DNA of 64,000 nt, taken from the NCBI GenBank assembly GCA_964390845.1, contig CAYMIL010000001.1, forward strand, positions 11,307 to 75,306, written 5' to 3'. Both the position numbers and the translations under genes were made by a program. This document shows positions 4,131 to 32,196 of the stretch, piece by piece. This DNA comes from an uncultured Candidatus Saccharibacteria bacterium (GTDB lineage: Bacteria; Patescibacteriota; Minisyncoccia; Phycocordibacterales; CALRHW01). The first letter of the stretch is position 1, and every line of letters starts with the position of its first letter. The notes beneath the pieces were generated by a model. It was not told the origin of the DNA, ran no database searches, and saw only the letters and a list, made by a program, of their open reading frames with translations.

Positions 4131-4160
4131 TTGAAAGTGTATTGGGGTGATATGTAAAAA

Positions 4161-4188
4161 CGCGCGACCCTGTTGTGAGGGTCGCGCG
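4161..4188 (-). terminator. rho-independent terminator (11-bp perfect stem CGCGCGACCCT/AGGGTCGCGCG, loop GTTGTG, T-run on minus strand)
   Basis: inverted repeat read directly; on minus strand followed by TTTTTAC. Confidence 0.55.
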
Positions 4189-4301
4189 AGAAATGCAGCG
4201 AGATGCGGTCATGGCGTCAGTACGGCTTGTGCACCAAAGAACAGCGCGCCTACCGACAGTGCCGCGAGGATGCCGGCAAACGTGTCGTCGAGCATGATGC
4301 C

Positions 4302-4778
4302 TCATACGCCTGGGCATTTTTCCGCGGTCGATACTGGTACGGGCTTGAGGGTATCGAACACACGGAACATGATGAGTGCCGCCACAAGCCACCAGAACTG
4401 GAGCCACGCATCTCCAACGGGGAACAGGAACACGGCGAGCCCCGCGATTGCCTGACCGTGCACTTCATCGATGTTGGTCTCGTTGAAGTCGTGCGAGGTT
4501 TCTTCGCCTGTGTGTCGCTTGCGCTTGCCCCAGCGGGTTGCCATGAAGTGTTCGGCCGTGCCAACGAAGCACAGTCCGAGCATGAACGACGTCACGACGA
4601 GAACCAGCGAAGCGGTCCAGTCGTACCCCTGCCACACGAACATGCATTGGATGGCGAAGGCAACGAGGCTGCCCATGAGACCGCCGCCGGCTCCTGCCTT
4701 GCGGAGAATGATTCCTGGGATGAAGCCACTGAAGCCACCACTTGAAACTCCGATCGCACAAAGGGCGAGTATGTTCAT
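4302..4778 (-). CDS. pgpA: phosphatidylglycerophosphatase A (PgpA family), in ~62% GC island
   Basis: alignable to E. coli PgpA blocks (GSG..PGT.GSL, IDEVHG.., WLVAALIMFRVFDTLKPVPV vs WVAAGFVIFRILDMWKPWPI); GGAGGG SD before ATG (MNIL...). Confidence 0.6.
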   Translation of the reverse strand: MNILALCAIGVSSGGFSGFIPGIILRKAGAGGGLMGSLVAFAIQCMFVWQGYDWTASLVLVVTSFMLGLCFVGTAEHFMATRWGKRKRHTGEETSHDFNETNIDEVHGQAIAGLAVFLFPVGDAWLQFWWLVAALIMFRVFDTLKPVPVSTAEKCPGV

Positions 4779-4922
4779 ACGCGCACCCTCCTTTCTCTGG
4801 ATGTATATAGAACAATCCGACACAATGTACCATGATATTTTTATTTTGACTATGTTTCTATTGTCGATTAGTATTATTCACGGAATTAAGAACAACATCT
4901 GCGTCGTGCGCAAGGAGGCACC

Positions 4923-5279: not shown

Positions 5280-7451
5280 CTATGCCGGCCACTTTTCTAC
5301 GATGAGTAGATTTTTTTCTGCCTGAGGAAGATGCGCCCAGATTTCTTCTGTTACAAATGGCATGAATGGGTGAAGAATGACGACGCAGTGTTTGAGAATC
5401 TTAAGAAGTGTTTGCTGTCGAGATAGTTTTGCTGTATCGTCTGTGCCCGAAAGTATCGGCTTACTTTCCTCGAGTATTTTGTCTGCGAAGCGGTCCCAGA
5501 TGTAATGATAGATTTTTTCAGATGCGAGATGGAAGCGGAATCCGTCGAGGTCTGACGTGATATCTTTTGTTATTGTTTCAAGCTCATCGATGAGTGCTTT
5601 GTCTGCGTCTGTCGTAATCTGTGCAGAGTTTTCTACAATCCCTTCAGTGTTTGAAAGCACAAACCGTGTGATGTTCCAGAGTTTGTTTGCAAAATTTTTG
5701 TACCCCTTTATCTTGCTTTCTGAAAGCGCGGTATCGCTTCCAGGCGGATTACCAACAACAAGTCCCATACGAAGCGCATCGGTGCCGTATTTTTCTGTCA
5801 TGTCGACAGGGTTTACCACGTTGCCCTTGCTCTTGCTCATCTTTTTTCCGTGAGCGTCGTTGACGAGGCCGTGGAGATACACATCGCGGAATGGTACGTT
5901 GCCCGCAAGATAGAGGCCGAAAATCACCATGCGTGGAATCCATTTGAAAATGAGGTCATAACCCGACTCCATGACGTCGGTAGGGTAATGTGCGCTAAAA
6001 TCTTTACCGTCTGGGTATCCTGTTGTGATAAGCGGCCACTGGCCAGAAGAAAACCACGTGTCGAATGTGTCAGTATCTTGTGTTACTGAGCCACCGCACT
6101 TTGGGCATGTCGTCGCAGTGTTTTCAAGGTCGGGGAAGGCGTGACCGCATGCACCTTTTTCGTTGGCACAGATTTTTGCAGGAATCTGAATACCCCACAC
6201 GATTTGTCGGGAAATATTCCAGTCGAGTGTGTTCTCCATCCAGTAGTTGAAGATTTTTCGGTAATTGTCTGGATGGAATGTGATGTTGCCCGCTTCTACG
6301 GCAGCGAGCGCCTTTTCTGCAAGCGGTTTCATTTTTACATACCATTGTGGCATGCGCCGCGGCTCAATAACTGTGTTGCATTTGTAGCATGTCGGTACAG
6401 GGTGTACGTAGTCTTCGGTTTTCTCGATAAGACCGAGTGCTTCGAGATCGGCGGCAACTTGTTTGCGAGCCTCGGCAATTTTAAGCCCGGCATATTTCCC
6501 AGTTTTCTCGTTTAGTTTTCCATACTTGTCGATAACCTCAACAGAAGGGAGGTTGTGTCGCGCGGCAAGCTCGAAATCATTTTTGTCGTGAGCGGGTGTG
6601 ATTTTGAGTGCGCCTGTTCCAAATTCTTTTTCTACCATCTCATCACCAACAACAAGGAGGTTCATGTCGCCGATAGGTGTTTGTACCGTAATAGTAGTAC
6701 CAATGAGTGATTTGTATCGCTCGTCTGTTGGATGTACTGCTACAGCAACATCACCGAACATTGTTTCTGGACGTACGGTGGCGACGGTGAGAGGGCCATA
6801 TTTCAAATAGTAGAGCTTGTCCGTCATTTCTTTTGTTTCAGTCTCTACATCGGAGAGGGATGTCTGGTGTTTTGTGCACCAGTTCACCATGCGGTCGCCA
6901 CGATAGACAAGGCCGTCATCGTACATTTTTTTAAATGTCTCCTGAACCTGACGAATAACTTTTTCGTCGAGGGTAAAGAGTTCACGTGACCAGTCGCACG
7001 ACGCACCAAGCATGCGCACTTGGTTTTCCATGGTCGCCTTGTTTTCTAGAGTAAATTTGTAGATCTCCTCATAGAGTTCGCGCGGGTCCATTTTGAAACG
7101 CGAACGACCTTCTTTTTCAAGTTTTCGTTCGTATACAATCTGTGTTTCAAAACCAGCATGGTCTGCACCGGGAATCCAGAGTGCACGAAAGCCCTTCATG
7201 CGTTTGTAGCGGGTGATGATATCTTCGACGGTGATAGCGAGCGCGTGGCCGACGTGGAGGTTGCCGTTGGCGTTTGGTGGGGGCATGACAATAGTAAATG
7301 CCTTAGCGTCGTCGTATCGAGCGGGGAGATTGTCGGGGTTGAAAAAGCCAGAGCGTTCCCACTCGGCGTAGATTGTCGACTCCGTACTCTTTGGGTCGTA
7401 TGGTTTTGTAAATTTCTCGTGAATATTGTGTATTATAGCGGTTTTTGGCAC
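5280..7451 (-). CDS. valS: valyl-tRNA synthetase (compact, 723 aa)
   Basis: class I HIGH-type NANGNLHVGHA, RPETMFGDVAVAVHP (ValRS signature), KMSKS. Confidence 0.85.
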   Translation of the reverse strand: MPKTAIIHNIHEKFTKPYDPKSTESTIYAEWERSGFFNPDNLPARYDDAKAFTIVMPPPNANGNLHVGHALAITVEDIITRYKRMKGFRALWIPGADHAGFETQIVYERKLEKEGRSRFKMDPRELYEEIYKFTLENKATMENQVRMLGASCDWSRELFTLDEKVIRQVQETFKKMYDDGLVYRGDRMVNWCTKHQTSLSDVETETKEMTDKLYYLKYGPLTVATVRPETMFGDVAVAVHPTDERYKSLIGTTITVQTPIGDMNLLVVGDEMVEKEFGTGALKITPAHDKNDFELAARHNLPSVEVIDKYGKLNEKTGKYAGLKIAEARKQVAADLEALGLIEKTEDYVHPVPTCYKCNTVIEPRRMPQWYVKMKPLAEKALAAVEAGNITFHPDNYRKIFNYWMENTLDWNISRQIVWGIQIPAKICANEKGACGHAFPDLENTATTCPKCGGSVTQDTDTFDTWFSSGQWPLITTGYPDGKDFSAHYPTDVMESGYDLIFKWIPRMVIFGLYLAGNVPFRDVYLHGLVNDAHGKKMSKSKGNVVNPVDMTEKYGTDALRMGLVVGNPPGSDTALSESKIKGYKNFANKLWNITRFVLSNTEGIVENSAQITTDADKALIDELETITKDITSDLDGFRFHLASEKIYHYIWDRFADKILEESKPILSGTDDTAKLSRQQTLLKILKHCVVILHPFMPFVTEEIWAHLPQAEKNLLIVEKWPA

Positions 7452-7942: not shown

Positions 7943-7999
7943 AAGAGAAAGCCACCCAGATTCTTGCGAACCCAGGTGGCCTACGGGAGGGAAAAGCTC

Positions 8000-8431
8000 T
8001 CACTGTTTCGCGAGTTTCTGCTTGTGAGCCTCGGAAACAGACTTGTTGAGTCGTTCGATGAACGGCGCGGCACTTTCGGGCCACTTTCCGTCCGGATGCA
8101 CTTTGGTGTGGGTGAACACACCATTGCGATCTCGAAGTGAAAATGATTCCCATCGTCCATCTGCCTTGATGTCGCGCGCAGTGAGCAGGGTGAAGTCGGC
8201 GAACCTCATGCTCATCGGCGTGAGTATCACGACGCGGTCGTCGTAGCCCGTCTGCGAGTTGTAGTCCTCGCGCACGTTTACGGTACAACCGTCGTAGGAA
8301 CTCAGGTATTCCATGGGCGGATGTGGTGTCACATCGCCCTTGTTGTCTAGCCCGAGGAATACGAGCACCATGAGCGGGAGCGCTGCTGCGAAAGCAATCG
8401 CCCCACGAACCCTTGCGTATGTCCGAGTCAC
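8000..8431 (-). CDS. hypothetical secreted/membrane-anchored protein (high-GC island; GTG start with GGAGGAG SD; alternative ATG at 8485)
   Basis: N-terminal hydrophobic anchor AIAFAAALPLMVLVFLGL; GC-rich codon third positions. Confidence 0.4.
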   Translation of the reverse strand: MTRTYARVRGAIAFAAALPLMVLVFLGLDNKGDVTPHPPMEYLSSYDGCTVNVREDYNSQTGYDDRVVILTPMSMRFADFTLLTARDIKADGRWESFSLRDRNGVFTHTKVHPDGKWPESAAPFIERLNKSVSEAHKQKLAKQ

Positions 8432-8464
8432 GTCTTCTCCTCCATGAAAAGAGCTTGTTGACCT

Positions 8465-8520
8465 CTGGATTCCCCCGGAATCCATGACAAGGCCTTCACT
8501 ATTGATATTACCATATATGG
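8465..8520. promoter_or_regulatory. divergent intergenic region with two perfect palindromes: TGGATTCC-CCC-GGAATCCA (8465-8483) and ACCATATATGGT (8509-8520)
   Basis: read directly; lies between divergently oriented high-GC ORFs. Confidence 0.35.
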
Positions 8521-8570: not shown

Positions 8571-9242
8571 ATGGATGGTCATTCCGTCGTTGCTGACGGC
8601 GTTTCTACGCACGCACCCCACATCAAAAAGAAGGAGGTTTCTTGTGGTGCTGAAGAAGCAGTGAATGCTTTTAAGCTCTACAGCATTTCAAAGCAGGTAG
8701 AATCGTTTGCTCGCCGTGGAGTTCGGAGGGGGTGTTCTCCCTTCGACTTCGAATGTCCGCGTGGGCATGGTATGCAAGGAAACATACTTGTTCCGAGAAT
8801 TGAGTTTCTCGGACGCAACAGAGAGGAGGCTGGTGTTCGGCTTGTGCGTGTGTTTGGAACCATGCTCAAGCATCGGTTTTCGAGCGTAGACCTGCGGGGT
8901 TCGACACTCGAAGACAAGACGACGCGCGGTCTTGCTCGTGTGCAGGAGTATCACATCAATCGAAACATGCAGTTCGTGGCACTGCCGGTACGCGTAGTGG
9001 TTGCTCAGTCTGACACACGCGACGACGAATTTGGCCTCGGCCTTGTCGAGACTATGTCGTTTGTGATGACCCATGTGCCTCGGTTGTGGGCACTTTATTC
9101 TGCCATTGGCACGTTTTCGATCCCGTGTCTTGGGGAGCGATTCTTCGAATTCGTCTTCCGTGATGGCGTGGTTGAGCTCGTTGCCTGTGAGCAGAATGCA
9201 GTGCTTCAGCGTGTGCATGTGTGGGCAACATGCTGGCGGTAG
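8571..9242 (+). CDS. hypothetical protein (high-GC island; ORF opens at 8484, ATG with GGAGA SD at 8571)
   Basis: long ORF with GC-rich third positions; no recognisable domain. Confidence 0.4.
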   Translation: MDGHSVVADGVSTHAPHIKKKEVSCGAEEAVNAFKLYSISKQVESFARRGVRRGCSPFDFECPRGHGMQGNILVPRIEFLGRNREEAGVRLVRVFGTMLKHRFSSVDLRGSTLEDKTTRGLARVQEYHINRNMQFVALPVRVVVAQSDTRDDEFGLGLVETMSFVMTHVPRLWALYSAIGTFSIPCLGERFFEFVFRDGVVELVACEQNAVLQRVHVWATCWR

Positions 9243-9263
9243 CGCGAGGGCTGTTCGTTGGAT

Positions 9264-9310
9264 AAAAAGGGGCCGGACGCGTTGCGCGTCCGGCCCTCTT
9301 CTTCTTTTTT
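9264..9310. terminator. bidirectional rho-independent terminator (GGGGCCGGACGCG-TTG-CGCGTCCGGCCC flanked by A-run and T-run)
   Basis: 12-bp GC stem read directly; convergent genes end on both sides. Confidence 0.6.
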
Positions 9311-15118: not shown

Positions 15119-15545
15119 GGTACTCATCTATATCGGTTTGCTGTCTGTCATACTTTCCGGCGTTTTTGTGACAGCTGTATATCTTATTGAGTACGGCGAT
15201 GCGCGTACTCGGAAGATTGAAACCTTGGAGGATAGTCAATTCGTGATAGAAAAAATACAATCTTTTCAAAATTTTGGTTTTGACGTGGTGGAGCCAGCGG
15301 TTGGTGCAACAAGCTCAAAGCTTATTCTCGAGCGTGGAGATGAGCGTGTGAGTGTGTACGCAAGCACTGGTGCTGTGTTACTGCAGAGAAATGATGGTCT
15401 ACCAGAAGCGCTTACGCGACGTGGTCTGTTTGTTCATGCATCGAGTACGCTCGAATTTTCTTTTCTTGAAGAGGGTGGTGTGTTTGTGTATTTATTCATG
15501 AATGGTTTGTTATCTACTACACATATATGGATGTATGGCGTATAA
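15084..15545 (+). CDS. prepilin-type pseudopilin
   Basis: MYSNHRGFTLIEVLIYIGLL. Confidence 0.5.
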   Translation: MYSNHRGFTLIEVLIYIGLLSVILSGVFVTAVYLIEYGDARTRKIETLEDSQFVIEKIQSFQNFGFDVVEPAVGATSSKLILERGDERVSVYASTGAVLLQRNDGLPEALTRRGLFVHASSTLEFSFLEEGGVFVYLFMNGLLSTTHIWMYGV

Positions 15546-15916
15546 GACAGGGGGGTTATATTGCAGTAATGTCGGCAGTAGTGCTGTCGGTGGTATTAAT
15601 GGCGCTGTCCGTGCGTCTATCTGTTGCAGGTCTTTCGACGAAGTGGGCTAGTGTGTACCATGAAGGGCGCGCACGCGCTCAATTTCTCGTGTATTCGTGC
15701 ATTGATGTCGCGAGGCTATTTGTCGCTCAACATAGTTCTTATGGTGACGTGTACACCGTGCCGGTGGGAGACGAGGAGTGCACAATAGCGTTTGTGCAAA
15801 GAGATGGCCAGTATATTGTGGTGGATAGTTCGGCACAGGTCTCAGAGAGTCTTTTGGGTGTACGAGTTTCTATCGACACCCATTCTCCCACCTATGAGTG
15901 GCATATCGTGCGCTGA
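15527..15916 (+). CDS. pilus-operon membrane protein (possible PilX-like minor pilin)
   Basis: N-terminal hydrophobic helix, position in pilin operon; no canonical G-F motif. Confidence 0.35.
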   Translation: MDVWRIRQGGYIAVMSAVVLSVVLMALSVRLSVAGLSTKWASVYHEGRARAQFLVYSCIDVARLFVAQHSSYGDVYTVPVGDEECTIAFVQRDGQYIVVDSSAQVSESLLGVRVSIDTHSPTYEWHIVR

Positions 15917-17177: not shown

Positions 17178-17325
17178 CCCATTGCGTCTTTAATATTTGT
17201 GTTGTACGATATTTCTTGGTAGTTCATCGTTGTGTTTTCGCGTTGGATTCCACTGTGCGTGTCCCTATGGATGGGGCTGCCTGTGCCCGACAGTTTTCGG
17301 GTAACATCGCGTTTGGAGAATTGTC

Positions 17326-17838
17326 TTGACCTCTTACCTCGAACACTACAAGAAGAAGTTGGCTCGCGATCGCAGCAGTCCTGCGATGCGACAGGCGCGG
17401 CGTCCGACCGGAGCTCCTCTCATCATCCCCGATGACGAGCAGAAGCGTCTGGATCGGATCAAGAAGCGCCGCGCTGCTGAGATCGCCGCGCGTAAGCGCA
17501 AGCTTGAGAAGCCGGACCCGCCTCCGCGCGAGCTCGGGTGGATGCGCTTCGTGCGCTACGTTGTCGATGGGAAGGAGATGTACTGGCCTTCTGGCGGCCC
17601 TGTGTGGGTTGCGTATCAGGACAACACGATGTTCGTCCTGCCGGAGGGCTGTCTGCTCTTTCACGGTCGCAACGTTGAGGATTTCGAGATTGAGTGCCGT
17701 GAGGGTGCTCGGGTTGAGCTCCCGTCGCTTCCCAACGTCGCGCCCGTGTCCGCAATGACTGCCGGACCCAAGGATTTCCGTGTCGTCGTGGAGGAATTCA
17801 CCATGCCCAAGGCAAGCAAGAAGCGTGTCGCGGCCTAG
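17326..17838 (+). CDS. hypothetical basic N-terminus protein in ~60% GC island (TTG start, GGAGAA SD)
   Basis: strong GC3 bias in this frame versus antisense ORF 17224-17901. Confidence 0.4.
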   Translation: MTSYLEHYKKKLARDRSSPAMRQARRPTGAPLIIPDDEQKRLDRIKKRRAAEIAARKRKLEKPDPPPRELGWMRFVRYVVDGKEMYWPSGGPVWVAYQDNTMFVLPEGCLLFHGRNVEDFEIECREGARVELPSLPNVAPVSAMTAGPKDFRVVVEEFTMPKASKKRVAA

Positions 17839-17873
17839 GCTGGGCATCAACAAGCGCAGAAAACACAATCCCT

Positions 17874-17910
17874 GGGGAGTTGGCTTACGCCGACTCCCCA
17901 CATTTTTTTC
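17874..17910. terminator. bidirectional terminator GGGGAGTTGGC-TTAC-GCCGACTCCCC + T7
   Basis: read directly; loop contains stop codon of minus-strand gene. Confidence 0.55.
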
Positions 17911-29028: not shown

Positions 29029-30009
29029 ATGAGTCATTCTAAAGGTAAAAAAAGAGTTGGCGTACTGCGTGGTGGACCCTCTGGAGAATACGAAGTATCT
29101 CTAAAAACAGGCAACACTGTGCTTGCGCACTTGCCCCCACACTACGAACCAATTGATATCCTAATAGATAAAAAGGGAGTGTGGCATGTCGGTGGTCTCC
29201 CAAAGTCTCCAGAAAGTGTACTGCGTCTCGTCGATGTGGTGTTCAACGCGCTTCATGGCGATTATGGCGAGGATGGAAAGGTGCAACAGCTTCTCGATGC
29301 ATTTGGTGTTCCGTATACAGGTTCTGGTGCCGTTGCGTCTGCGCTAAGTATGAACAAATACCTTACAAAAAAGGTGTACATTGCGCGTGGTCTACGCACG
29401 CCTCATTTTGAGATTCTTCGTCGAGAAGACATCGAGCGCCCAAAATTATTTGGCGTATTTGCAAACCTCAATAAACCACTTGTAGTAAAGCCGGCATCGG
29501 CAGGTTCTTCGCTTGGAGTAACGATTCTTGTTGATTGGGAAGAGTTTACACCTGCTGTTGAGCACGCACTTGAGTTTTCTGACACGGTGCTTGTGGAAGA
29601 GTTTGTAAAGGGAATAGAGGCAACGTGCGGCGTACTCGATAGCGCGACAACAAAAGGTGAGATATATGCGCTTCCACCTGTGGAAATTGTAAAACCAGAA
29701 GAGAGTCCCTTCTTTAATTACGATGCAAAGTATAGCGGTGCATCTCAAGAGTTCTGTCCTGGTCGTTTCAACCCTCACCAAACAAAAAAAATTCAAGAGA
29801 TGGCAAAGGAAGCACACCGCGCGCTTGGGTTGCGTCACTATTCTCGCTCCGACTTTATCGTCGCTGATGATGATATTTACATTTTGGAGACCAATACATT
29901 GCCCGGCCTTACGCAGGAGTCTTTGTTGCCAAAGTCGCTCCTCGCAGCCGATTGCTCACTGCCAGACTTTCTCGATCACGTGATTATTTTGGCAATTGAA
30001 GGGGATTAG
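29029..30009 (+). CDS. ddl: D-alanine--D-alanine ligase
   Basis: ATP-grasp motifs, RVGVLRGGPSGEYEVS N-terminus. Confidence 0.85.
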   Translation: MSHSKGKKRVGVLRGGPSGEYEVSLKTGNTVLAHLPPHYEPIDILIDKKGVWHVGGLPKSPESVLRLVDVVFNALHGDYGEDGKVQQLLDAFGVPYTGSGAVASALSMNKYLTKKVYIARGLRTPHFEILRREDIERPKLFGVFANLNKPLVVKPASAGSSLGVTILVDWEEFTPAVEHALEFSDTVLVEEFVKGIEATCGVLDSATTKGEIYALPPVEIVKPEESPFFNYDAKYSGASQEFCPGRFNPHQTKKIQEMAKEAHRALGLRHYSRSDFIVADDDIYILETNTLPGLTQESLLPKSLLAADCSLPDFLDHVIILAIEGD

Positions 30010-30017
30010 ATGGTGCC

Positions 30018-30046
30018 TTGATTTTCTACCGTGTGTCCCATATAAT
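30018..30046 (+). promoter_or_regulatory. near-consensus sigma70 promoter TTGATT-N17-TATAAT for tRNA-Ala
   Basis: read directly; tRNA 5' end 30 nt downstream of -10. Confidence 0.5.
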
Positions 30047-30076
30047 GTAGCGCACGGTTTAGTTTGGTAAGTAGAC

Positions 30077-30149
30077 GGGCCCTTAGCTTAGTTGGTAGAG
30101 CGCCTCATTTGCAATGAGGAGGTCATCGGTTCGAATCCGATAGGGTCCA
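30077..30149 (+). tRNA. tRNA-Ala(UGC), CCA not encoded
   Basis: cloverleaf folded by hand: 7-bp acceptor with G3:U70, anticodon loop TTTGCAA, T-arm GGTTCGAATCC. Confidence 0.85.
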
Positions 30150-30851
30150 CAACACATTGTTCCATGCCTCCAAAGTTAGTTTTCCTGAGTCTTCATTTTT
30201 TGTATATATAGTTACACTAGCATTTTTGGGTGCATTTTTTCCTTTCAGAAATTCTTCCATTTCCTCCCACGTCATCTCGTCTAAGATAAATCGAAAACAT
30301 TGGATGATTCGCCCATGTGTAACTAGCACTACGGTTTTGTCTTCGTAGGTGGTATAGAGTTCTTTAAGAAATGGTTTGAGGCGCTGTTCGATAACATCCA
30401 TCAAACTTTCACCGCCAACTGGTCGTGCAAACAAACCTCCAACAATGTCCCAATAGTGTTGTATGTAGGGAAAGTAAAGATTCTTGTCAGCCTCAAGGAG
30501 TACGTGGGTGTACCCACTTTCTCGTTCCCTGAGCGATAAATGTTCCTTAATCGGGATAGAGTTATTTTCATATGCGGTTAGTAGTTCTGTCGTTGTCTGT
30601 CGGGTTCTTTGATAACCAGAGTGGAACAATACATCTGGAGTGCCAATAAGTTCTTTGAGATGTTTAGACGTTTCTCGAGCCTGAAGAATTCCTGCGTTGG
30701 TAAGATTGATTTTATGATCCGGAATTTTTGAAAGAGACTCAAGTCCAGACGGGTCTTCGGTAAATAGTGCGTCGTTTGCTGCCTTATTTTTTTCTGATTC
30801 CGCGTGACGAATGAGGATAAGTTTTTTTGGAGTTCCTGACATATTTTTCAT
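30123..30851 (-). CDS. histidine phosphatase superfamily (phosphoglycerate mutase-like) protein; 3' end overlaps tRNA-Ala antisense by 27 nt
   Basis: LIRHAESEKN (RHG-type) and VLVTHG motifs. Confidence 0.55.
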   Translation of the reverse strand: MKNMSGTPKKLILIRHAESEKNKAANDALFTEDPSGLESLSKIPDHKINLTNAGILQARETSKHLKELIGTPDVLFHSGYQRTRQTTTELLTAYENNSIPIKEHLSLRERESGYTHVLLEADKNLYFPYIQHYWDIVGGLFARPVGGESLMDVIEQRLKPFLKELYTTYEDKTVVLVTHGRIIQCFRFILDEMTWEEMEEFLKGKNAPKNASVTIYTKNEDSGKLTLEAWNNVLWTLSDSNR

Positions 30852-30961
30852 GCTAGCACAGGTTGTGTATTGGTGCACGACTATGCTATAAATTTATGCA
30901 TATCAGCGTGGGTCGAAACTCGCGCGCAGTTCTTTGGGGAAACAGAAAGAAGGTGATAGCT

Positions 30962-31573
30962 ATGACGTGTCGTTCCGTTCCAACCTCAGTCGTCATCGTT
31001 GGTGAGGCGGGGACGGGAACGTCCTCCCTTCTCAGTGCGCTTCACAGCCAACTCAGTTTCAGGTGCCGTTCGGCGGGTAGTGAGGTGCGCAGGGCGCTTA
31101 TTCAGCGCAATGTCGACATCAACAACCCGGGCAGTCTCTATGAGACCGACGAGGAGTTTGACCTGAGGATTGACAGAGCGAATCGAGAGTTCATTGCCGA
31201 TGACGGCACCGCTCTCGACTGCCGACTCGGCCTGCTTGCGACAGAGGGCATGAGTCACGTGCTCAAGGTCAGACTCATCTGCGATCCGGAAGTGCGCTAC
31301 CAGCGCATCGCCGCACGCGAAGGGATTGCCCTCAGCCAAGCGGCAGAGCGAACGAAGGCTCGCGACGAACGCGACCTCAGGCGCCTCTCGACCATCTACA
31401 AGAAGACCCGCCAGGAGATCTACGGACTTCATCACTTCGATCGGGTGTTCGATACCACGGATACCTCGACGGAAGTGTGTGTTCGCGTGATCCAGAGCCT
31501 GTGCGCGCTCCCTCTCTTCGATGGGACCACCGTTCCCATGACCTGCTGTGGCCGATGTGCCAACGGCCGGTGA
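30962..31573 (+). CDS. P-loop kinase resembling archaeal-type (type 2) cytidylate kinase, in ~58% GC island
   Basis: IVGEAGTGTSSL Walker A; LKVRLICDPEVRYQRIAAREG...ERDLRR lid/C-terminal pattern; GAAGGTGA SD. Confidence 0.45.
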   Translation: MTCRSVPTSVVIVGEAGTGTSSLLSALHSQLSFRCRSAGSEVRRALIQRNVDINNPGSLYETDEEFDLRIDRANREFIADDGTALDCRLGLLATEGMSHVLKVRLICDPEVRYQRIAAREGIALSQAAERTKARDERDLRRLSTIYKKTRQEIYGLHHFDRVFDTTDTSTEVCVRVIQSLCALPLFDGTTVPMTCCGRCANGR

Positions 31574-31593
31574 ACAACGCCCCCCCCAACTAG

Positions 31594-31637
31594 CCCTGTG
31601 CACCGCCCTCAAGGTGGTGTACGGGGTTATTTTTTTG
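31594..31637 (+). terminator. rho-independent terminator (CCCTGTGCACC...GGTGGTGTACGGGG with G:U pairs, then TTATTTTTTTGTTG)
   Basis: folded by hand. Confidence 0.45.
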
Positions 31638-31654
31638 TTGTAAAATAAGCTGTA

Positions 31655-31678
31655 ATGACGGGTCTGTATATCCGTCAT
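31655..31678. promoter_or_regulatory. palindrome ATGACGG-N10-CCGTCAT 6 nt upstream of ECF sigma start
   Basis: read directly. Confidence 0.3.
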
Positions 31679-31683
31679 ATTCT

Positions 31684-32196
31684 ATGGATTCGCGCACAGA
31701 GGCACAATTTCTTGAGTCATATAAGGAACACGCTGATGCTTTGTTCCGATATTGCTACTTTAAGACCCTTCAGCGAGAAGAGGCAAAAGACATGCTTCAG
31801 GATGTATTCGTAAAGACATGGGAATATATCAACAAGGGAGGTGAGGTAGAAAATATGAAGGCATTTTTGTATCGAACAGCTCACAATATAGTTGTCGATC
31901 ACTATCGCAAGAAAAAGACCGTCTCGCTAGACGACCTCGCAGATCAGGGTTTTGATCCTGGCGCGGATACCACACAAGAACTTGAAAACCAGATAGATGG
32001 CGCGCATGCGATTTCTCTACTCAACAAAATTCCCGATGCGTATCGCGATGTGATTTTTATGCAGTATGTTGATGGTCTCAGTGTAAAAGAAATTGCAGAT
32101 ATTCTTGGAGAAACACCAAACAATGTCTCAGTAAAAATTCACCGAGGACTTGAAAAGTTGCGAAAAGTATACAACGACAATGGATCCAGAAATTAA
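31684..32196 (+). CDS. ECF-subfamily RNA polymerase sigma-70 factor
   Basis: sigma70 region 2 and region 4 (GLSVKEIADILGETPNNVSVKIHRGLEKLR). Confidence 0.8.
   Translation: MDSRTEAQFLESYKEHADALFRYCYFKTLQREEAKDMLQDVFVKTWEYINKGGEVENMKAFLYRTAHNIVVDHYRKKKTVSLDDLADQGFDPGADTTQELENQIDGAHAISLLNKIPDAYRDVIFMQYVDGLSVKEIADILGETPNNVSVKIHRGLEKLRKVYNDNGSRN

Follow-up and report, generated by a model that had tools for sequence, protein, structure and literature searches.

A divergent type-2 cytidylate-kinase-family gene of foreign composition near a tRNA-Ala gene in a Patescibacteria genome

We analyzed a 64-kb window of contig CAYMIL010000001.1 (the whole stretch of 64,000 nucleotides), in which a gene rich in guanine and cytosine (GC) lies downstream of a tRNA-Ala gene. 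The open reading frame (ORF) at positions 30962-31573 encodes a divergent, full-length and intact member of the type-2 (archaeal-type) cytidylate kinase family, with membership at the level of the Pfam family. The gene is coded on the plus strand and is compositionally foreign to its surroundings. Judged by the flanking ddl gene, the window belongs to the Patescibacteria, class Paceibacteria, where the nearest species representative is 55% identical in Ddl. The features of the locus are as follows.

30018-30046, plus strand: candidate sigma-70-like promoter for the tRNA, TTGATT-17-TATAAT, with 10 of 12 consensus matches
30077-30150, plus strand: tRNA-Ala(UGC), found by ARAGORN and by Rfam RF00005 (73.8 bits over 30077-30149)
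30123-30851, minus strand: histidine-phosphatase-superfamily gene, 242 amino acids (aa), Pfam His_Phos_1 E 5.9e-21, also called in the public annotation
30852-30961, no strand: divergent intergenic region, delimited by sequence and GC profile
30962-31573, plus strand: type-2 cytidylate-kinase-family gene, 203 aa, identified by hidden Markov models (HMMs), homologues, a fold model and hhalign
31591-31639, plus strand: intrinsic terminator of the kinase gene, a 17-pair GC-rich hairpin (31591-31629) followed by a T-run
30986-31678, minus strand: antisense ORF, 230 aa, called as a gene in the ENA, Logan and NCBI records
31684-32196, plus strand: extracytoplasmic function (ECF)-type sigma factor at backbone GC, forming the right flank of the GC-rich island (Pfam Sigma70_r2/r4_2, NCBIfam)

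The assignment of the ORF to the type-2 (archaeal-like) cytidylate kinases, which the initial annotation had proposed together with a profile-HMM search as its check, was borne out. The Pfam model PF13189 Cytidylate_kin2 matched with 39.7 bits, above its gathering cutoff of 28, and the NCBIfam model TIGR02173 cyt_kin_arch aligned over model positions 3-165 of 169 (E 2.2e-18, 66.9 bits). The bacterial type-1 Cmk model PF02224 scored 14 bits, below its cutoff of 26. An exhaustive HMMER search of 1.84 billion representatives returned 316 relatives, all of which are cytidylate-kinase-like proteins of ~170-190 aa. The recognizable motifs are a P-loop (G14-EAGTG-T20-S-S), a G39/R43 motif, R88, R112/R115 and a lid (R134-D-E-R-D138-L-R-R141). 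All seven columns that are invariant in a 17-sequence alignment (G14, G19, G39, R43, R115, R134 and R141) are kept, six of which, all but R141, do not vary among 41 sequences either. Also kept are D67, R88 and R112, which are nearly invariant. At the C-terminus, residues 183-203 form a Cys-rich, disordered tail.

The predicted structure, with a predicted local distance difference test (pLDDT) score of 90.7, has the compact nucleoside-monophosphate (NMP) kinase fold and lacks the insert of the bacterial NMP domain. Cytidylate kinases are its top structural matches. Neither of the closest solved structures, 3hdt and 3fdi, has a known function, and a sequence search of the PDB with the kinase gave chance HflX matches only. 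An hhalign comparison with E. coli Cmk (97.7% probability) aligned R88 with R131 and R134/D138/R141 with R181/D185/R188, and these E. coli residues contact CMP or its phosphate (PMC7259600). The members of this family are small P-loop NMP kinases.

Three properties of the locus identify the coding strand. The family HMM matches only on the plus strand, the Shine-Dalgarno (SD) sequence and the terminator both serve the plus strand, and the pattern in which GC at third codon positions (GC3) exceeds that at first positions (GC1), which in turn exceeds that at second positions (GC2), is found on the plus strand. The claim that the ORF has its own SD and terminator also stood, the former being AAGGTGA at 30950-30956, 5 nucleotides (nt) before the ATG, and the latter the hairpin and T-run, at the right edge of the GC-rich island. 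Nevertheless, the ENA, Logan and NCBI gene calls take the 230-aa antisense ORF in place of the kinase. This antisense ORF has no Pfam match and no homologue except itself among 5.8 billion clusters, in which diverged relatives are likewise absent. Its third codon position falls on the first position of the sense frame. Because of the high GC both strands are open, and a codon-aligned antisense frame remains open by chance where a GC3-rich gene avoids TTA, CTA and TCA in its sense frame. The 230-aa antisense ORF is a by-product of GC-rich codon usage. A word-indexed homologue search with the kinase protein came back empty and an exact look-up found no record; the kinase is absent from protein collections because the public calls chose the wrong strand.

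The high GC that had been claimed for this gene (58%) was confirmed and slightly exceeded. The ORF has a GC of 0.60, with GC1, GC2 and GC3 of 0.60, 0.49 and 0.71, respectively, whereas the median GC3 of the backbone is 0.417 with a robust standard deviation of 0.041, which puts the kinase ~7 standard deviations out. The GC2 of 0.49 compares with ~0.38 in the backbone, and the protein contains 11.8% Arg and 2.0% Lys, while Lys is about equal to Arg in backbone proteins. Local GC climbs from ~0.40-0.45 to 0.58-0.64 between ~30900 and 31640. The relative synonymous codon usage (RSCU) of the kinase gene correlates at 0.84 with that of the other GC-rich islands in the window and at 0.08 with that of the backbone. 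There are three such further islands, each of a single gene, with GC of 0.56-0.61 and GC3 of 0.64-0.74 in a backbone of GC 0.45.

4151-4800, minus strand: GC-rich island with a PgpA-like gene at 4302-4778 (Pfam PgpA 43 bits; AAGGAGG SD)
7951-8500, minus strand: GC-rich island with a 161-aa ORF at 8000-8485, recognized by composition
17201-17900, plus strand: GC-rich island with a 150-170-aa ORF (17326/17386-17838) and its own terminator at ~17870-17900

Pairwise RSCU correlations among the four island genes are 0.61-0.84. The PgpA-like ORF matches only Pfam PgpA and, weakly, NCBIfam PgpA, and the two unnamed ORFs gave nothing in viral scans, PHROGs, NCBIfam or Pfam. No phage, plasmid or viral relatives of these other island ORFs were found, and a flank motif shared by the four islands was sought and none was found. 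A weaker GC-rich stretch lies at 8701-9300, beside the 7951-8500 island. The PgpA-like gene, 26 kb away from the kinase, is miscalled in the same way: the public annotation has a 180-aa plus-strand ORF at 4203-4745 (15266-15808 in record L137), without a Pfam match, opposite the minus-strand gene.

The nearest relative of the kinase among the 1.84 billion representatives shares 33% identity with it (E 2e-14). The best-match cluster, P0001/P0151, is native to a GC-rich Ca. Paceibacterota genome (contig GC 0.59, gene GC3 0.77); that kinase gene overlaps a YfbR-like HD nucleotidase gene. We also considered whether the nearest homologue, on locus L129, is itself a GC-rich island in a low-GC backbone, and rejected this, as the backbone of the longer contig L138 is GC-rich. 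At 1206-2524 of L129, a Trypsin_2 protease gene and an unknown gene have a GC3 of ~0.28-0.30 among genes at 0.72-0.82, which is the mirror image of the GC-rich-island pattern in the window. A neighbour-joining tree joined the kinase to the divergent bacterial-context sequences P0015, P0005 and P0010 in 84 of 100 bootstraps and kept this group separate from the archaeal cluster. Searches of viral contigs, phage records, plasmids and PHROGs gave no relative of the kinase, and thus no sign that it came from a mobile element. JGI metagenomes scanned at the DNA level held no match to the kinase, and a scan with the neighboring sigma factor gave 37% identity at best. The 64-kb window holds no second cmk of either type, as judged by tblastn with E. 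coli and B. subtilis Cmk sequences and by the family HMM. No type-1 cmk was present in 1.6 Mb of relatives' loci, which are partial genomes only, so this says little.

Type-2 kinases are native housekeeping genes at backbone GC in other Patescibacteria. The contigs L131 and L138 each carry one, and in L135 a tandem Cytidylate_kin2 pair (5438-6531) directly follows rpsB-tsf-frr-rseP, between rseP and proS. Archaeal copies sit in a secY-DUF106-cmk cluster (L134). Many bacteria keep pyrH between tsf and frr. No pyrH lies between these genes in L135, and one copy of the tandem pair might serve as a UMP kinase.

The surroundings of the kinase gene were only partly as first described. The tRNA-Ala(UGC) reported at 30077-30149 was recovered by both ARAGORN and Rfam, and it is the only tRNA that ARAGORN finds in the window. 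Its near-consensus promoter exists, as the sole promoter-like site in 29900-31800, but shuffled sequences average 1.9 such sites; the promoter is therefore plausible and not significant on its own. The kinase gene does begin ~0.8 kb downstream of the tRNA, but the gap is not empty, as it holds the minus-strand His_Phos_1 gene. This phosphatase gene, at backbone composition (GC 0.41, GC3 0.37), is convergent with the tRNA, and its final 28 nt (30123-30150) overlap the 3′ part of the tRNA. The overlapping tail falls outside the Pfam domain match, and the phosphatase matches the phage protein family phrog_12933 (function unknown) with E 9e-16. In the divergent intergenic region, an AT-rich stretch adjoins the phosphatase start, the left GC boundary lies at ~30900, and a small hairpin occupies 30906-30925. 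Among the called genes, the neighbors of the kinase are the phosphatase, the ECF sigma factor, a DUF5667 protein and GDH. Immediately upstream of the ECF sigma start codon at 31684 stands a perfect 7-bp inverted repeat (ATGACGG-N10-CCGTCAT, 31655-31678), a possible operator or leader hairpin.

The uvrA-uvrC-ddl block is conserved across Paceibacteria loci, and in most of them ddl is closely followed by a tRNA-Ala(UGC), on either strand. As judged from these gene orders, the pairing of ddl with tRNA-Ala(UGC) is an ancestral Paceibacteria linkage; because it is conserved across the class, the tRNA of the window stands at its ancestral place. The strand of the tRNA differs between genomes (L005-L082), which implies repeated local inversions downstream of ddl. 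In the 6 kb downstream, no gene family occurs in more than 11 of 48 loci, and the downstream genes of the window have no counterpart. Conservation of the kinase gene beside tRNA-Ala at backbone GC, an arrangement that the initial annotation regarded as contrary to acquisition, was not seen: none of the 47 other Paceibacteria loci has a counterpart of the kinase downstream of ddl. GC-rich patches of ~0.4-0.7 kb, with small ORFs that have no Pfam match, occur in the uvrA/uvrC/ddl gaps of several other Paceibacteria (L030 7601-8300 and 9401-10000; L013 3651-4050; L056 7851-8250), whereas these three genes are tightly packed in the window.

The tRNA had been suggested as an integration site, with a search for a repeat of its 3′ end as the check. 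In that search, the last 22 or 16 nt of the tRNA, with up to three mismatches, matched only the tRNA itself in the whole window. A direct-repeat finder reported none, and no integrase or recombinase was present among the called genes within 10 kb, Pfam matches included. The GC-rich segment starts ~750 bp from the tRNA, beyond the backbone-GC gene that overlaps the tRNA, and the foreign DNA, with a GC rise that starts at ~30900, does not adjoin the 3′ end of the tRNA. The three other islands (at 4.2, 8.0 and 17.2 kb) are far from the only tRNA of the window. Since there is no repeat and no integrase and the GC-rich segment lies behind a native gene, we regard the adjacency as a coincidence, and the closeness of the kinase to tRNA-Ala is best read as incidental, at a general synteny break. 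The further suggestion of an old, decayed insertion is also a poor fit to this gene, whose composition shows no amelioration, whose reading frame is intact and which keeps every family-invariant residue.

Overall, we consider it probable that the locus carries an intact, divergent type-2 kinase gene that was imported as a single gene from a GC-rich donor, and that its nearness to the tRNA is incidental. A single-gene segment of ~740 bp, comprising the 5′ leader, the SD, the ORF and its own terminator, would have arrived from a genome of ~58-60% GC, for which another Patescibacteria-like lineage would be the most plausible type of donor. The segment would have been inserted between the native histidine-phosphatase gene and the native ECF sigma gene. 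The tRNA would mark the end of the conserved uvrA-uvrC-ddl-tRNA-Ala block, beyond which the class shows variable gene content. Most single genes transferred into Patescibacteria derive from other Patescibacteria, nucleotide-metabolism genes are among those transferred, and horizontal gene transfer (HGT) accounts for up to 13% of genome length (PMC12455944).

Several observations weigh against this explanation. No donor closer than 33% identity was found, which is odd for a transfer that retains a GC3 of 0.71. The branches of the tree are long, so long-branch attraction is possible and the grouping is weak evidence. The closest genome relatives are distant (best Ddl 55%, best sigma 37%), an empty insertion site was not observed, and the check for another cmk covered only 64 kb of the genome. 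With respect to the enzyme, the TIGR02173 score of 66.9 is under the curated equivalog cutoff of 102.1, as are the scores of the relatives P0005, P0010 and P0015. The canonical P-loop Lys, which in T. thermophilus CMPK bridges the phosphates of both nucleotides, is replaced by Thr20. Leu89 stands where bacterial Cmk has the Asp that reads the cytosine N4, and the protein lacks the insert in the NMP domain that carries the cytosine-binding Arg in the bacterial enzyme. No paper characterizing the archaeal-type enzyme was found in the literature searched. Because of Leu89 and the missing insert, CMP specificity is not transferable from the solved enzymes; given the departures at Thr20 and Leu89, substrate and mechanism are taken from the family annotation and not from those enzymes. 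However, 48 of the 150 nearest family representatives have Thr in place of this Walker-A Lys (motif GxxGxGT[ST][ST]), and the Leu at position 89 hardly varies across the type-2 family; therefore, both are family traits and not signs of decay. A few of these 150 type-2 representatives carry Ser, Arg or Asn at the Lys position. On the basis of the family annotation, the protein would be a CMP kinase, and it is predicted to be active despite the Thr at the P-loop Lys position.

We weighed the import of a single gene against other origins of the GC-rich segment. The kinase may be the lineage's own fast-evolving type-2 kinase, inherited vertically, with a high GC from a cause other than transfer. 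The native type-2 kinases at backbone GC in Patescibacteria (the L135 tandem pair, L131 and L138) agree with such an origin, as does the grouping of the kinase with bacterial-context sequences, and CPR (candidate phyla radiation) members of the family are only ~37% identical to one another, so that 33% to the nearest relative is not extreme. However, vertical descent leaves unexplained a GC3 seven robust standard deviations above the backbone, shifted GC2 and Arg/Lys usage, codon usage uncorrelated with that of the backbone, a signature common to three unrelated single-gene islands, and sharp boundaries at the gene's own leader and terminator, and we consider it unlikely. We think it very improbable that the segment is the remnant of an element that entered the tRNA-Ala 3′ end and later lost its integrase and att repeat. 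The conserved uvrA-uvrC-ddl-tRNA-Ala block does stop at the tRNA, with variable content beyond it across the 48 loci, and the phosphatase, with its phage-family match, also lacks a counterpart there in relatives. Nevertheless, besides the missing repeat and integrase and the ~750 bp of separation by a backbone-GC gene, islands of identical signature lie elsewhere in the window without a nearby tRNA, and with relatives this distant (Ddl at most 55%), synteny would be expected to be lost in any case.

Other doubts concern the product of the gene. Thr20, Leu89, the score below the TIGR02173 cutoff and the unknown function of 3hdt and 3fdi would all fit a protein that is not a catalytic CMP kinase, such as a nucleotide-binding pseudo-kinase, a kinase that acts on some other substrate, or one with an accessory or defence-linked role. 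PADLOC also gave weak matches to VakA (E 1e-4) and to viperin-kinase fusions (E 2e-4). Nevertheless, Thr20 and Leu89 are shared with the family and all invariant Arg residues are kept. The PADLOC matches are limited to the generic kinase domain, and no viperin or other defence gene lies nearby, so the defence or accessory role that had been left open initially was not supported; we judge a function other than that of a CMP kinase to be quite improbable. Finally, we give almost no credence to the public annotation, which takes the 230-aa ORF on the minus strand (30986-31678) for the real gene. That ORF is longer, has an ATG start and was chosen in the ENA, Logan and NCBI records. However, it has neither a Pfam match nor a homologue other than itself, and the SD and terminator belong to the other strand, whose frame gives the full-length family match and the kinase fold. 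Its openness is expected by chance opposite a GC3-rich gene, and the same wrong-strand call was made at the PgpA-like island.

The import of the kinase gene as a single gene, which we prefer, may be part of a wider process. The four islands have a GC3 of ~0.64-0.74 and codon usage in common, and at least three of them have their own terminator. We tentatively suggest, while regarding it as rather doubtful, that the kinase is one of at least four recent single-gene imports in the 64-kb window from one GC-rich donor pool, and that it is a xenologous replacement of a lost CMP kinase. If so, the donor pool could be, for example, a GC-rich Paceibacterota lineage or the host, and at least two of the four imports would be miscalled by standard gene callers, so that both imports and CPR nucleotide salvage would be under-counted in databases.

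CPR/Patescibacteria genomes have a minimal nucleotide metabolism, and the kinases that these bacteria own bear on the extent of their dependence on a host. A probable CMP kinase is here invisible in public protein sets. In streamlined genomes of low GC, a gene of foreign composition can be missed or placed on the wrong strand, and metabolic reconstructions and HGT counts are biased as a result. In biological terms, the case would be an ordinary single-gene transfer within a known enzyme family, and single-gene imports into Patescibacteria are already documented (PMC12455944).

Compared with the archaeal-type (d)CMP kinases (TIGR02173/PF13189), the kinase of the window agrees in length, apart from a C-terminal tail of ~20 residues, in its full-length HMM alignment and in its fold. 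It also shares the P-loop GxxGxG[K/T][ST][ST], the SAGxxxR motif, the (D/E)xRL motif and the Arg cluster of the lid. It differs from them in scoring below the equivalog cutoff (66.9 compared with 102.1), in its identity of at most 33% to the 1.84 billion representatives and in the extra Cys-rich, disordered tail. In addition, it lies outside both the archaeal secY-DUF106-cmk cluster (L134) and the CPR housekeeping cluster (L135), as an isolated GC-rich insert. From the bacterial type-1 Cmk (TIGR00017, PF02224; E. coli 2cmk, T. thermophilus 3akc, S. aureus 2h92), it is set apart by a PF02224 score of 14 bits, by the lack of the ~45-residue NMP-binding-domain insert, by Thr in place of the Lys of the canonical P-loop GxxxxGK[ST] and by Leu in place of the cytosine-reading Asp. 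In contrast to the PADLOC pVip-kinase and VakA systems, it matches with E values of only 1e-4 to 2e-4, and their partner genes are not among its neighbors. The island resembles tRNA-targeted integrative islands in its anomalous composition less than 1 kb from a tRNA 3′ end, at a synteny break, but it lacks an integrase and an att repeat, is not contiguous with the tRNA and consists of a single 0.74-kb gene. Although the evidence here is compositional and syntenic instead of tree reconciliation, and no donor was identified, the island resembles the singly transferred genes of Patescibacteria (PMC12455944) in that a nucleotide-metabolism gene has apparently been imported into a streamlined CPR genome.

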